A DNA stretch of 64,000 bases from an uncultured Alphaproteobacteria bacterium (GCA_944392315.1 CALXWH010000001.1:703-64702), one strand, 5' to 3'; shown: positions 11,231-19,299, counted from the stretch's first letter. Notes: a model not told the origin generated them from the letters alone. Numbers and translations are program-made.

Positions 11231-11307
11231 TTGACAAAAAGCATTTTTGTTTGTATAGTCGTGGTCTTATTTATTAACTCTATGTTTCATTATTAAATTT
11301 TATCATT
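11231..11307 (+). promoter_or_regulatory. promoter TTGACA(11231)-17-TATAGT(11254) plus conserved leader box ATGTTTCATTATTAA (11282-11296), repeat-family member 1
   Basis: Near-consensus sigma70 hexamers. The leader box is conserved in all five family members. No Shine-Dalgarno before ATG 11308. Confidence 0.6.
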
Positions 11308-13137
11308 ATGGAAAAAACAAATGTTTGCAAACTTTCTTTTTGGAAGAAACATGCGCTGTTGCGTCAGTTGAAAAAAAATCCTGCTTCTGTTCCTCAACAG
11401 TATCAAGCGGCTTTATTGGATGCGGTATCGGCGAAGACTTTTCAGAATTACTATTCTGATTTTTCTAAGTTCGCACCAGAAGCTTTTGATGTTCTTTTGG
11501 AACCGCGCAACAAAGAGAAATTTAAGTATTGTAAATTCTGCGGCTTTACTCCTGATCAGCTTGCCAATGAATTTGTTCAAAAAGGAACTGATGAGCAGGT
11601 ACTTGATGTGCTGGAAACGCACTGTTGCACATTGGGCCATGTTCTTTTAGAACGTCCGTCTGAATTGTTTGAAAGATATGTCCGCCGAATGGAAACCATT
11701 CCTTTAAATTTATGGAAGGAAATCATCAAACAAAAACGGGAAGATTTGATTTTAATGTTTCTTAAATTCAGAAACCAAGATAATGTCTTATCTGAGCAGT
11801 ATGTGAATGCTCTTTTTGATTCTGCTTTGGAGAAAAGTATTCAGGCTTACTTGGAACAAAATTCTGTTTTTGGATTATCCAGAGTGAGCTTGTATATCTT
11901 GAAATCTGGCGATTTTGCCCTTTGCAAAAAGTTGCTTGAGAACAATCCATTAACATCTGCTGCAGAATATGATGCCTTGTTTAAGCTTAATCAGCCGGAA
12001 CTTATTTTGATACTGGTCAAAAAAATGCTTCAGGATGATGAGGATAATCCTTATGAGGTTCCGGATGATTTTGAGGTTGCTCTTATTGATAGCGGTGCTA
12101 TTGAAGCTATTAAGCTTTATATTCAATACAATCAACTTGATTATGGTGCAACTTTTCACCTTTTCAAATCCGGCAATGAGGAGCTTATTCGTTTCTATTT
12201 GGAATCTGATTACTTTAAGGATTGTAAAAAGTTTCCGTCCGATGCAGCCGCCATGTCTCTTTTTGCAGGAAATAACACCAGTTTGCAGTATTGTTATGAA
12301 AGTAAATTCGGTTTGCCTTATCAGTTGGAACGTGAGTTGGTCATTTCTGAACAAGATAGACTTGTCTCCTCTTCCAAAGATAAAAAACATACTGCTTATA
12401 CTCAAAGCAAATTTGCATCCTACATCTGTGCGCATGAGCTATATCCCTTGAACGCTGCACTGCTCATGGAAAAAGGCTCTATTGAAGATGCTCTTAATTA
12501 TTTCCAAAAGTATCCGTTACCGGATATTGCTGTGGTGGCTTTGTTCAAAAACGGGAAAGACAAGTTGCGTAAAGCCTATCTTGATTTTTTGCTTGAGCGT
12601 CAATTAACGGTTTGCGCCTGTGCTCAAAAGTATTTTGTGAAATTTGCGTCTAAACAGAAATTGATGACTTATTTGCAAAATATTTCTAAAGAGGCTTTGT
12701 GTGATGACGGTCAAATGGCTTTGTTGAAAAGAGAAGATATGGAGCTATGTCAAGTTTACACTAAGCGTTTCGGCTTTAGCTCTCCGGCTTTCATTGCTCT
12801 TATTCAATCTGGCTCGGTTGACTTTATCAAAGCCATCTTTCAGGAATATAGGCTGCCTAATGATGTTATCAAAGCAATGATTGAGAGCGGACGAAATTCC
12901 GTTATGATTGAGTTCTTTAAGGAATCTGATTTGGAAGAAGAATTTGAAAAAAAACTTATCCGGTCTAATTTTTCAAAGAATGAAAAAGCGGTTTGTTTCT
13001 ATCTGGATAAGTACGACTTGTTTGCAGATAATGAAGTTGAACTGCTCAAGCTCAACAACAAAAAAATGATTGAGGTATATTTGGCCAAACATTATCTATC
13101 CGAGAAAGCCACACAATTATATGCCTCTATGTATTAA
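11308..13137 (+). CDS. helical-repeat protein family member 1 (609 aa, about 26-31-aa repeat)
   Basis: Long ORF paralogous to the four genes downstream. Repeats include HLFKSGNEELIRFY, ALIDSGAIEAIKLYI and VELLKLNNKKMIEVYL. No signal peptide or TM segment. Confidence 0.85.
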   Translation: MEKTNVCKLSFWKKHALLRQLKKNPASVPQQYQAALLDAVSAKTFQNYYSDFSKFAPEAFDVLLEPRNKEKFKYCKFCGFTPDQLANEFVQKGTDEQVLDVLETHCCTLGHVLLERPSELFERYVRRMETIPLNLWKEIIKQKREDLILMFLKFRNQDNVLSEQYVNALFDSALEKSIQAYLEQNSVFGLSRVSLYILKSGDFALCKKLLENNPLTSAAEYDALFKLNQPELILILVKKMLQDDEDNPYEVPDDFEVALIDSGAIEAIKLYIQYNQLDYGATFHLFKSGNEELIRFYLESDYFKDCKKFPSDAAAMSLFAGNNTSLQYCYESKFGLPYQLERELVISEQDRLVSSSKDKKHTAYTQSKFASYICAHELYPLNAALLMEKGSIEDALNYFQKYPLPDIAVVALFKNGKDKLRKAYLDFLLERQLTVCACAQKYFVKFASKQKLMTYLQNISKEALCDDGQMALLKREDMELCQVYTKRFGFSSPAFIALIQSGSVDFIKAIFQEYRLPNDVIKAMIESGRNSVMIEFFKESDLEEEFEKKLIRSNFSKNEKAVCFYLDKYDLFADNEVELLKLNNKKMIEVYLAKHYLSEKATQLYASMY

Positions 13138-13153
13138 ATGTGTTTTATTTGAA

Positions 13154-13186
13154 CTGCTTCCGTGTTTTCGGAGGCAGTTTTTTTTG
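13154..13186 (+). terminator. rho-independent terminator of member 1
   Basis: ctgcttccg/tgtttt/cggaggcag followed by T9. Confidence 0.75.
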
Positions 13187-13195
13187 ACTTTTTTG

Positions 13196-13272
13196 TTGAC
13201 TTAAATATTTTTTTCTTTACGATTTTGTTCAGATTATTAACTTTATGTTTTACTATTAATTTTTTATCTATT
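13196..13272 (+). promoter_or_regulatory. promoter TTGACT(13196)-16-TACGAT(13218) plus leader box ATGTTTTACTATTAA (13245-13259), member 2
   Basis: Same geometry as the other family members. Confidence 0.5.
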
Positions 13273-18020: not shown

Positions 18021-18486
18021 ATTTTACAGATTGCAACTGTTGAGGGGTGACAACGTAGCAGTTTTCCTGTATATGGCAGATTTGCTCTGCAATAATGTCG
18101 CCTTCTATATCATATATACTGTTTATGCGTTTGTTGTATCCAAACGGAATATTCCCCGTATTGCGAATATTGTCCAAAGTCCAGTATAAATCTAAGGAGA
18201 CATACCCTCCATACATGGTTGATAACATTTTGGTTATCTGGTGGCTTCCATGAAATGCATATTTTCTTTTTGATGGTGCAGTTGGATATTCTACCAATAC
18301 CTGTATTTCTTCCGGCTCTATTTTCGCAATATATTTTGCTCCGGCAATGTAGGTTGCAGCACCTCCCTCTCTACTATTACCAACATAGTGAAAATAGAAA
18401 ACATCATTTCTTTTGGACACTAATTTTACATGCATATTTTTTTCTATATATGCAAGAAATTTCTGTTCTTGTTCTTGATTTATCAT
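18019..18486 (-). CDS. hypothetical protein (155 aa) embedded antisense within the repeat-family cluster
   Basis: Clean ORF with no SD, no signal peptide and no motif recognised. Confidence 0.55.
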   Translation of the reverse strand: MINQEQEQKFLAYIEKNMHVKLVSKRNDVFYFHYVGNSREGGAATYIAGAKYIAKIEPEEIQVLVEYPTAPSKRKYAFHGSHQITKMLSTMYGGYVSLDLYWTLDNIRNTGNIPFGYNKRINSIYDIEGDIIAEQICHIQENCYVVTPQQLQSVK

Positions 18487-18568
18487 ATGCGTATGTTTTT
18501 AATTGTTATAATAATTTTTTTACTGTTCCTAATTTTATATTTTTTCTATTTTTTGTCAATAACCTTTC

Positions 18569-18644
18569 TTGACAATTTTAAGCTCCTCTTTATAATGTGC
18601 GTATCAACTTAATTTTATGTCGTACTATTTTATTTTTTACAATT
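18569..18644 (+). promoter_or_regulatory. promoter TTGACA(18569)-16-TATAAT(18591) plus degenerate leader box ATGTCGTACTATTTT (18617-18631), member 5
   Basis: Consensus hexamers. The box is recognisable, but the TAA is lost, so the mini-ORF runs on to 18658 and overlaps the main ATG out of frame. Confidence 0.6.
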
Positions 18645-19253
18645 ATGAAAGCTATTGAGATTTGGAACAAATTTCTTGCTGATAAGCAACAAATGTCTGA
18701 AGATGAAGAATTTATTTTCGTGCGTGATGGATTAGATGAGTGGCTCTTAAAATATCTACAAAAATTTTCTCTTGGTGAAAAAGCAGAGCTATTGCTCGTA
18801 ACTTCTCGCTCTCATCTGGTCGTTTTGGATTACATCTATTTTTCTGATGAACCGTTTTTTGTCGCATCCGAAAAGGCTTTGCTTGAGAGAAAAGATACGG
18901 AGCTGATTTTAAAGTATGCTCATAAGTTTTGTTTTGTGCAAGAACTGCATGCATTTATGGTGGACGTTTCCAATGAAGATGTTTTACTCGGCTACTTTCT
19001 TGAGGAACAGTTATCTCCTGACGGTGAAATTAGGCTTATTGAACGGCATTCTCAAAAACTTTTCAAAGCGTATGTTGCAGAATATGCGTTAAGTGAAGAG
19101 GCTGAACAACACCTGATTAAACAAAAGAATTATGACTTTTTCAGGATTTATGTTTCTGAATATACGCAGATTAAACCAGCTTCGCTCGCTTTACTTGCCA
19201 AGCTGCATGATGAAAAACTTCTTGATATCTTCAGAGAATTTTGCTTATCTTAA
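18645..19253 (+). CDS. helical-repeat protein family member 5 (202 aa)
   Basis: Start moved to ATG 18645 by alignment of the promoter and leader. The aromatic position recurs every 26 aa (ELILKY, VLLGYF, KLFKAY, FFRIYV). Confidence 0.8.
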   Translation: MKAIEIWNKFLADKQQMSEDEEFIFVRDGLDEWLLKYLQKFSLGEKAELLLVTSRSHLVVLDYIYFSDEPFFVASEKALLERKDTELILKYAHKFCFVQELHAFMVDVSNEDVLLGYFLEEQLSPDGEIRLIERHSQKLFKAYVAEYALSEEAEQHLIKQKNYDFFRIYVSEYTQIKPASLALLAKLHDEKLLDIFREFCLS

Positions 19254-19264
19254 ACCTTAAACTG

Positions 19265-19299
19265 AAGAGCTCCCAATCTATTTGATTGAGAGCTCTTTT
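19265..19299. terminator. bidirectional terminator between member 5 and the MFS transporter
   Basis: 13-bp stem aagagctcccaat/ctatttg/attgagagctctt with a flanking T-run. Confidence 0.7.

Follow-up and report, generated by a model that had tools for sequence, protein, structure and literature searches.

Five paralogues of an unclassified 26-residue alpha-helical repeat family, each with a predicted promoter-leader-terminator cassette, in uncultured gut Alphaproteobacteria

To which family do five neighbouring genes for helical-repeat proteins in an uncultured gut bacterium belong, how long have they been kept, and how are they expressed? The genes (m1 to m5) lie on the plus strand of a 64,000-nt stretch of DNA from an uncultured member of the Alphaproteobacteria (CALXWH010000001.1:703-64702; hereafter the window), and the cluster examined spans positions 11,231-19,299. 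An earlier sequence-only reading had described them as paralogues of an unclassified family with a two-helix repeat, each gene being a transcription unit of its own. That observation is confirmed here and its interpretation is supported. All five open reading frames are also called as genes in independent metagenome assemblies, and one metagenome scaffold (ONAT22-1_SAMEA6814577 scaffold_50) is 100 % identical to the window. Together they encode 2291 amino acids (aa), which corresponds to 10.7 % of the window (about 11 percent in the earlier estimate). The explanation favoured here, held with a little more belief than doubt, is that the five are functional genes, paralogues that diverged long ago within an unclassified family of alpha-solenoids, with shared expression control and a function that is inferred. 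As part of the same explanation, the family would be restricted to uncultured gut Alphaproteobacteria, represented by metagenome-assembled genomes (MAGs) of the RF32/Rs-D84 type.

Paralogy was assessed by pairwise BLAST and then by profile-profile comparison of the subfamily alignments with hhalign. Although BLAST identity between members is 20-27 %, the hhalign probabilities are 96-100 %: m3 aligns with m1 at 99.9 % (co-linear over about 520 columns), with m2 at 100 %, with m4 at 99 % and with m5 at 96 %, and m1 aligns with m5 at 97.6 %. Each pair also aligned in several shifted registers, as is expected for internal repeats. An N-terminal module had been proposed as common to m1-m4; it is clear in m2-m4, whereas m1 reveals it only in profile comparisons. 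Orthologues of m3 have invariant H32, H33, N35, M36, G41 and C42 in this module (residues 32-42), and those of m4 have invariant Y34, N40, E42, C43, C44 and S45 (residues 34-45). The module is preceded by a basic helix rich in Trp and Phe. At the other end a conserved C-terminal cap, Y-x4-G-[FLI]-[SDN]-[DE], is common to distant subfamilies as well.

The period of the repeat was measured by BLOSUM62 autocorrelation against shuffled sequences. Lag 26 ranks first in every protein except m4, where only lag 52 scores higher (per-protein z 3.3-7.2), and in the pooled data it reaches z 11.1, with lag 52 at z 5.1. As a positive control, the TPR protein next to the cluster has its peak at lag 34 (z 14.4), while four non-repeat proteins have no comparable peak. 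An iterated hidden Markov model (HMM) of the repeat core detects 14 units in m1, 11 in m2, 13 in m3, 8 in m4 and 5 in m5. Over 221 family proteins it finds 1794 units, whose spacing is most often 26 residues (576 cases), then 27 (179) and 28 (97), with a tail at 27-31 and harmonics at 52-58 and 78-82. The consensus derived from these units, L-S-x-x-A-E-x-x-L-[LIFV]-K-x-G-[DN]-x-[ED]-L-[IL]-x-x-Y-[LI]-x-x-[HY]-x, is close to the one proposed from the window alone, as is the period. The repeat position with the most information is Tyr21.

AlphaFold2 models were computed for m3 (with nine orthologues) and for m4 (with 15 sequences), and both are predicted to be all-alpha and of solenoid type. The m3 model has a mean predicted local distance difference test score (pLDDT) of 87.9, a predicted template modelling score (pTM) of 0.57 and 43 helices of 6-13 residues, mostly 8-10; the m4 model has pLDDT 89.3, pTM 0.76 and 20 short helices. 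In the C-terminal half of the m3 model the helix starts alternate by +14 and +12 residues, which amounts to a 26-residue hairpin, and the linker between units is about 3-4 residues in both models. Confident helix-hairpin units are modelled along the whole chain, and every Foldseek match is a solenoid. No PDB chain matched either model at E 1e-3 or better. For m3 the matches were generic ARM, HEAT, PPR, PUF and clathrin solenoids with a template modelling score (TM) of at most 0.23. For m4, designed ARM proteins lead the PDB matches by E-value, and the highest TM values belong to a 'unique ankyrin' (4qfv, 0.39), a DARPin fusion (0.38) and the ANK domain of RNase L (0.33). Among predicted viral structures (BFVD) the matches are mostly giant-virus proteins with divergent ankyrin repeats (E 2e-4 to 1e-2, TM 0.25-0.41). 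The nearest analogue of the modelled structure is an ankyrin-type stack of helix-turn-helix units without room for the ANK finger loop.

Searches against known families support the unclassified status. Neither Pfam nor NCBIfam returned a match to the five proteins, even at E up to 1, no Pfam repeat family matched 74 further family members at E up to 0.01, and sequence-profile searches of the PDB were empty or insignificant. PADLOC gave a partial match only (best E-value 0.0015), and PHROGs had nothing meaningful for the five proteins. Ankyrin repeats, families of which are often expanded and fast-evolving in host-associated genomes, are the best structural analogues found: in both, helix-turn-helix units whose tight turn contains Gly are stacked in tandem into a long solenoid, one that binds proteins in the case of ankyrins. 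However, their unit has about 33 residues rather than 26, which here leaves no room for the beta-hairpin finger loop, the TPLH and GADVN signatures are absent, no Pfam Ank match exists, and TM stays below 0.5 (0.39 in the PDB, 0.41 in BFVD) despite high Foldseek probability. When the m4 alignment was compared by hhalign with a consensus designed ankyrin, the probability was 0.6 %, although this is a weak test. The sequence-only reading had named the HEAT-like PBS-lyase and LRV repeats as the nearest length classes. These do form right-handed solenoids of short alpha-alpha units (about 24-30 residues), but the consensus found here differs in its conserved Tyr21, Glu6 and G-[DN] turn, and none of the HEAT_PBS, HEAT_2, HEAT_EZ, HEAT or LRV models (PF03130, PF13646, PF13513, PF02985, PF01816) matches the five proteins or the 74 relatives. 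The sole structural match with an LRV name is at rank 44 among the viral models (TM 0.28), and the closest analogue in structure is ankyrin-like rather than HEAT_PBS or LRV. Armadillo proteins (importin-alpha and designed ARM) are also alpha-solenoids and are the top PDB Foldseek matches by E-value, but they have three helices per ~42 residues where there are two per 26 here, and their TM is 0.10-0.29 with E no better than 2e-3. TPR, Sel1 and PPR repeats have periods of 34, 36-44 and 35 residues, and no Pfam match to them was found. This is a new repeat family inside the well-known class of alpha-alpha solenoids. Neither of the outcomes that the earlier reading had named as counting against it was obtained, these being a match to a known family, or a missing solenoid prediction combined with missing evidence of expression.

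Relatives were collected by an exhaustive profile search of 1.84 billion protein representatives, and 197 representatives were found at E 1e-3 or better. Among 149 listed matches that were classified, about 60 belong to the orthologue groups of m1-m4 and about 88 to other subfamilies with the same repeat, including a protein named 'unknown [Acetobacter sp. CAG:267]'. A word-indexed search with m3 retrieved ten clusters only, all metagenomic, one of them named 'Alphaproteobacteria bacterium' (MBR5599163.1). Every member whose source was traced comes from a MAG of uncultured gut Alphaproteobacteria or from a gut metagenome, and tblastn searches of phage and plasmid collections found no relative. 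One protein from the exhaustive search, P0071 (1999 aa), was rejected as a false positive: none of the five subfamily profiles detects it, and it is devoid of repeat units. It is probably also the source of the single TMP_3 tape-measure match among the 74 members, which was set aside.

The loci were surveyed with the adjacent TPR gene as anchor, one genome per species, and iterated HMMs were applied to the best 80 loci (L-numbers below denote loci from other genomes compared with the window). By their titles, nearly all of these 80 loci belong to MAGs of gut Alphaproteobacteria sampled in humans, ruminants, mice or rabbits. The family is carried by 27 distinct loci in 1-5 copies, always directly upstream of and divergent from the TPR gene; at more distant loci other genes occupy the position beside it. 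The m1 and m3 groups each occur at 21 loci and the m4 group at 20, as against 6 for m2 and 7 for m5. Judged by these counts, m1, m3 and m4 represent orthologue groups of long standing, the presence of m2 and m5 varies between loci, and the cluster is not a recent burst. Full-length orthologues exist in more than 25 species. Elsewhere the arrangement differs: in another lineage a pair of 655-aa and 299-aa members sits at the same TPR/GT-C site, in CAG:267 a single 390-aa member lies between lepB and rnc, and in yet another gut metagenome lineage (L096, 1-10533) eleven tandem members of 125-405 aa lie next to bamA, lpxD and fabZ. The rest of the window is core chromosome (ribosomal proteins, IF2/NusA, transketolase, SHMT). 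In a multi-omics study of the rumen, RF32 and Rs-D84 Alphaproteobacteria and the Pseudomonadota genera CAG-267 and MGBC133411 were without ammonia-assimilation genes (PMC13196213); the same bacteria were described as having a reduced metabolism and 'a potential symbiotic lifestyle' (PMC13196213).

The family changes much faster than its neighbours. Orthologues are 43-45 % identical at L005, where the TPR protein is 95 % and the MFS protein 89 % identical, and 26-29 % identical at L008, where the TPR protein is 86 % identical. The rate of nonsynonymous substitution (dN) is 0.11-0.38 for the family; the corresponding values are 0.014-0.017 in TPR, about 0.03 in MFS and about 0.05 in SHMT. Overall the family proteins evolve 3-25 times faster than the neighbours. 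The ratio of dN to the synonymous rate (dS) is about 0.1-0.35, an approximate value as dS is saturated, and clearly below 1. By this measure purifying selection acts on the genes, which are not in decay. One pseudogene was seen: the m4 orthologue of L012 (about 4060-4099, minus strand) is truncated after 24 codons, with its leader box intact. In the comparison of L012 with window positions 4246-6203, the AlkD-like and SHMT genes have dS of 0.13 and 0.72, against 1.4-2.5 for TPR, MFS and the 513-aa GT-C gene, and the closer pair suggests a recent recombination tract between species.

The upstream regions of the five genes follow one design. In order, they contain a terminator, a -35 element (TTGACA or TTGACT) within TTATTGACAAAAA, a -10-like hexamer 16-17 nt on, the box TATGTTTCAYTATTAA and the ATG. 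The box starts about 48 nt after the start of the -35 element and is followed by 11-13 nt of A/T that end in ATT-ATG. It occurs 4 times in the window (0.43 expected). Across species the box was found upstream of 55 of 75 family genes with up to 3 mismatches, and with up to 2 it is almost exclusive to the family. The distance from -35 to box is 47-50 nt in 49 of 54 unique cassettes, that from box to ATG is 10-14 nt, and the conservation extends into ATT-ATG-GAA-AAA. None of the five genes has an element resembling a Shine-Dalgarno (SD) sequence, as opposed to 31 of the 36 other genes in the window. The leaders are unstructured (dG -0.2 to -4.7 kcal/mol, z 0 or above), and no leader matched the Rfam covariance models, the sub-threshold matches lying only on a terminator and inside m5. 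A hairpin followed by a T-run is predicted after every one of the five genes. Independent transcription units, as proposed by the sequence-only reading, are thus predicted from the positionally conserved -35 element, leader and terminator hairpin of each gene.

The eleven-gene array of L096 and the 53 % GC genome of CAG:267 have the same design (terminator, TTGACA, AT-rich leader without SD, TATTAA core), and it is therefore a property of the family and not of the locus. The promoters of L096 additionally have a conserved TATG about 13 nt after the -35 element, possibly the TG of an extended -10. The cassette also settles two starts on which gene callers disagree, namely m2 (628 vs 591 aa, GTG at 13162 vs ATG at 13273) and m5 (218 vs 202 aa, 18597 vs 18645): by its conserved position the real starts are the ATGs at 13273 and 18645. 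Translation of m2 from the GTG at 13162 would traverse the terminator and promoter, giving a spurious hydrophobic N-terminus. In L011, which among the species-representative genomes is the closest to the window and has no m2, the alignment blocks overlap in the m2 and m3 leaders (L011 7815-7851 vs window 13275/15145), and the m2-type promoter is now fused to m3. The position of this junction inside a leader indicates that whole genes can be lost or gained by recombination between cassettes.

Several readings of the leader were tried and rejected. A small upstream open reading frame, ATG-TTT-CAY-TAT-TAA (MFHY-stop), is not preserved as a frame: about 10 orthologous leaders disrupt the frame or the stop (TATTTAA variants), one lacks the ATG, and in one the stop falls at codon 2. 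Phase variation by strand slippage in the A/T tracts is provisionally rejected as well: between four strain contigs of near identity (99.7-100 %) there are substitutions only and zero indels. A wider regulon was not found either, the non-family genes with weaker boxes (3 mismatches) encoding unrelated proteins. The exception is in CAG:267 (L095), where a gene for a 259-aa non-repeat protein (7005-7784, minus strand) has an almost perfect box, TATGTTTAATTAAATTTTTTTATCATT-ATGGAAAAA, and is divergent from the 390-aa gene (8001-9173, plus strand). The 390-aa protein has a duplicated non-repeat N-terminal domain, with LGWPFYVYPDGTCG twice, and a PMT_2-like GT-C gene lies 2.7 kb downstream.

Two known systems resemble the leader. 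The ros-box is the A/T-rich operator of Ros/MucR in Agrobacterium, with the half-site TATATTTCA (PMC9779718). As in that system, an A/T-rich site lies at promoters of lineage-specific genes in Alphaproteobacteria, and the leader sequence TATGTTTCA agrees with the half-site in 8 of the 9 bases with which the box opens. However, the inverted second half TGTAATATA is absent from the leaders, and control by MucR is only a lead. The leader box also differs in its fixed distance from the AUG and in its conservation into the first codons, and these two features are at least as suggestive of translation initiation. The other likeness is to AU-rich leaders that depend on S1 and not on SD: the 5' untranslated region (5'UTR) here is unstructured, AU-rich and without SD, in a genome that otherwise uses SD. 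Several leaders hold TTAACTTTA just before the box, which we take to resemble the 'epsilon' element of T7 gene 10 (UUAACUUUA); literature searches gave no confirmation of the resemblance. Table 1 collects the features of the cluster and its flank.

Table 1. Features of the repeat-gene cluster and the adjoining operon; positions are counted from the first nucleotide of the window.
Feature	Position	Strand	Remarks
m1 promoter-like site	11231..11259	+	TTGACA-17-TATAGT; -35 position conserved across orthologues
m1 leader box TATGTTTCATTATTAA	11281..11296	+	11 nt before ATG; no Shine-Dalgarno
m1	11308..13137	+	609 aa; about 14 detectable repeat cores; orthologue group A
Predicted intrinsic terminator after m1	13151..13180	+	12-bp stem and T-run
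m2 promoter-like site	13196..13223	+	TTGACT-16-TACGAT
m2 leader box TATGTTTTACTATTAA	13244..13259	+	13 nt before ATG
m2	13273..15048	+	591 aa; variably present paralogue; absent in L011, L015, L016, L017
Predicted intrinsic terminator after m2	15059..15085	+	
m3 promoter-like site	15103..15131	+	TTGACA-17-TAATTT
m3 leader box TATGTTTCACTATTAA	15151..15166	+	12 nt before ATG
m3	15179..16936	+	585 aa; orthologue group B; AlphaFold2 model with 43 helices
Predicted terminator after m3	16952..16984	+	A-tract, 14-bp stem, T-tract; -16.8 kcal/mol, z -4.8
m4 promoter-like site	16986..17014	+	TTGACT-17-TACCTT
m4 leader box TATGTTTCATTATTAA	17034..17049	+	12 nt before ATG
m4	17062..17976	+	304 aa; orthologue group C; AlphaFold2 pLDDT 89.3, pTM 0.76
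Predicted terminator between convergent m4 and orfX	17993..18016	+	
orfX	18019..18486	-	155 aa; non-repeat; convergent to last long repeat gene; no Shine-Dalgarno
m5 promoter-like site	18569..18596	+	perfect TTGACA-16-TATAAT
m5 leader box, degenerate, TATGTCGTACTATTTT	18616..18631	+	13 nt before ATG
m5	18645..19253	+	202 aa; about 7 clean repeats; variably present paralogue
Predicted terminator hairpin between m5 and convergent MFS transporter gene	19264..19299	+	-19.3 kcal/mol, z -7.2
All-TPR protein, flanking anchor, non-member	10122..11093	-	323 aa; divergent from m1; Pfam TPR_1 E 1.6e-51
Two PMT_2-type (GT-C) genes	8545-10086, 7056-8555	-	same operon as TPR gene (TPR last); Pfam PMT_2 for the 513-aa gene

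In the explanation favoured here, the building block would be a 26-residue helix-turn-helix (helix A S-x-x-A-E-x-x-L-L-K, turn x-G-D, helix B x-E-L-I-x-x-Y-L-x-x-H). Units would stack via a ladder of Leu, Ile and Tyr, with a geometry like that of an ankyrin repeat minus its finger loop. The five members have isoelectric points of 4.8-7.1 and net charges down to -40, and their highest Kyte-Doolittle value in a 19-residue window is 1.43, in agreement with the earlier statement that they have no signal peptide, lipobox or transmembrane segment. As soluble, acidic to neutral proteins without Sec, lipoprotein or transmembrane signals, they would be protein-binding scaffolds or adaptors, whose exposed positions diversify fast while the hydrophobic ladder is kept. 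Each cassette would consist of a sigma-70-type promoter with a near-perfect -35 element, an unstructured AU-rich 5'UTR of ~40 nt lacking SD, and its own terminator. The shared leader would put all members under one control, exerted either by translation initiation that needs no SD or by an operator immediately 3' of the transcription start, and the repeated cassettes would be recombination substrates by which whole genes are added or deleted. A bolder version, which we regard as speculative and rather doubtful, takes the SD-less leader box as a specific cis signal (a new element for SD-independent initiation or repression, or the target of a dedicated factor) that defines the regulon of a new effector-like solenoid family. 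With these proteins the gut Alphaproteobacteria of RF32/Rs-D84, whose genomes are reduced, would interact with a host or partner cell, and the cassette would be the unit of gene gain and loss driven by recombination.

Several points speak against this explanation. The fast evolution may merely reflect the low constraint typical of repeat scaffolds and not an arms race, and the saturation of dS blurs the estimate of selection. Promoter-like matches overall are not above chance (32 found vs 29 expected from shuffles); the promoters are credited because their position is conserved, not because of the match count. Weaker leader-like boxes also occur upstream of some unrelated genes. The superhelical shape, finally, is inferred from secondary structure, confidence scores and Foldseek matches alone.

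Other explanations account for parts of the same evidence. Repeat effectors are common in host-dependent bacteria, as in the ankyrin, Sel1 and TPR effector families of Legionella, Wolbachia and Rickettsia, and the five proteins could likewise be exported effectors that reach a eukaryotic or microbial partner without Sec, through vesicles or type I, IV or VI secretion, and bind host proteins there. A repeat family that is lineage-restricted, expanded and fast-evolving would suit such a role, and so would its ankyrin-type nearest analogues in structure, among them the ANK families expanded in giant viruses, and the reduced metabolism and potential symbiotic lifestyle reported for the host clade (PMC13196213). 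However, besides an autotransporter and a pilin-like gene the 64-kb window contains no secretion system, no signal of any kind was detected in the five proteins, and the genes are vertically inherited in the core chromosome beside housekeeping genes. We consider export unlikely. We consider it improbable that the repeat is a very divergent ankyrin (or HEAT-like or LRV) repeat that lies beyond the reach of HMMs and not a new family. The helix, G-[DN] turn and second helix are reminiscent of ANK, the viral Foldseek list is dominated by ankyrins with probability about 1.0, and the two best TM values in the PDB belong to an ankyrin and a DARPin fusion. Against this stand the period, the lack of any Ank, HEAT, HEAT_PBS or LRV match in the five proteins or their 74 relatives at the permissive thresholds given above, the hhalign result with designed ankyrin, TM values that are all below 0.5, and PDB sequence profiles that returned nothing.

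The tight link between box and family might also mean that the proteins are nucleic-acid-binding solenoids of the PPR/PUF/TALE kind, which recognise their own leader box and regulate themselves. With its flanks the box is about 16-22 nt long, a length similar to the number of hairpins in the long members (roughly 21), and PPR10 and PUF are among the weak Foldseek matches. But the proteins are acidic to neutral, no repeat position is both hypervariable and enriched for base-contacting residues, short members (202-304 aa) have the same box, and TM to PPR and PUF is 0.15-0.22; we regard this idea as very improbable. A diversifying array of anti-phage defence or toxin-immunity proteins has equally slim prospects: tandem paralogue arrays, presence/absence polymorphism and fast evolution are as expected for it, but PADLOC and PHROGs gave no match, the neighbourhood has no gene for a toxin, a nuclease, an ATPase or a mobile element, no relative was found in the phage and plasmid collections, and the core trio m1, m3 and m4 is stably inherited. 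That the ORFs are decaying or spurious, held open by AT-rich composition, might be argued from the lack of database annotations and from the one pseudogene orthologue of m4. It is effectively refuted by dN/dS well below 1, full-length orthologues in more than 25 species and confident AlphaFold2 models, and the conserved cassettes also speak against it.

The earlier listing of five repeat genes stood, but it had overlooked a sixth gene, orfX, between m4 and m5. Family searches with orfX gave no match, and homologues occupy the same position in 11 other loci (L011-L016, L018, L019, L021, L030, L036). It could be a functional partner of the repeat genes. On the other side of the cluster, the 323-aa TPR protein is 95-100 % identical across species whose housekeeping proteins are at 85-95 %, and it was found in 225 species-level genomes. 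The two GT-C genes are paralogous and 34 % identical to each other. A functional link between the repeat family and this operon, to which the adjacency in 27 loci and the GT-C homologue 2.7 kb away in CAG:267 could point, was considered and rejected: the L096 array has no such neighbour, so vertical inheritance of the insertion site explains the adjacency equally well. Elsewhere in the window there are a very large autotransporter (59507-63985, minus strand; 1828 aa in the full contig), a Sel1-repeat protein (49577-50695, plus strand) and a pilin-like gene of the Bundlin/PilS type (35120-35803, minus strand), which are other candidate surface or host-interaction factors.

Should the proteins prove to be ordinary cytoplasmic scaffolds, the result would be of use for annotation and hardly beyond that. 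As a structural unit, a short alpha-hairpin repeat of 26 residues with a Tyr ladder would be an addition to the catalogue of solenoids, of possible interest for protein design. The conserved SD-less leader, in a genome that uses SD, may offer a compact system in which to study operator control or translation initiation of a non-canonical kind. The uncultured gut Alphaproteobacteria of the RF32/Rs-D84 type occur widely in humans, ruminants, mice and rabbits; a clade-specific family which is core-chromosomal, yet diversifies fast and varies in copy number, would be a natural candidate for an interaction that defines their lifestyle.

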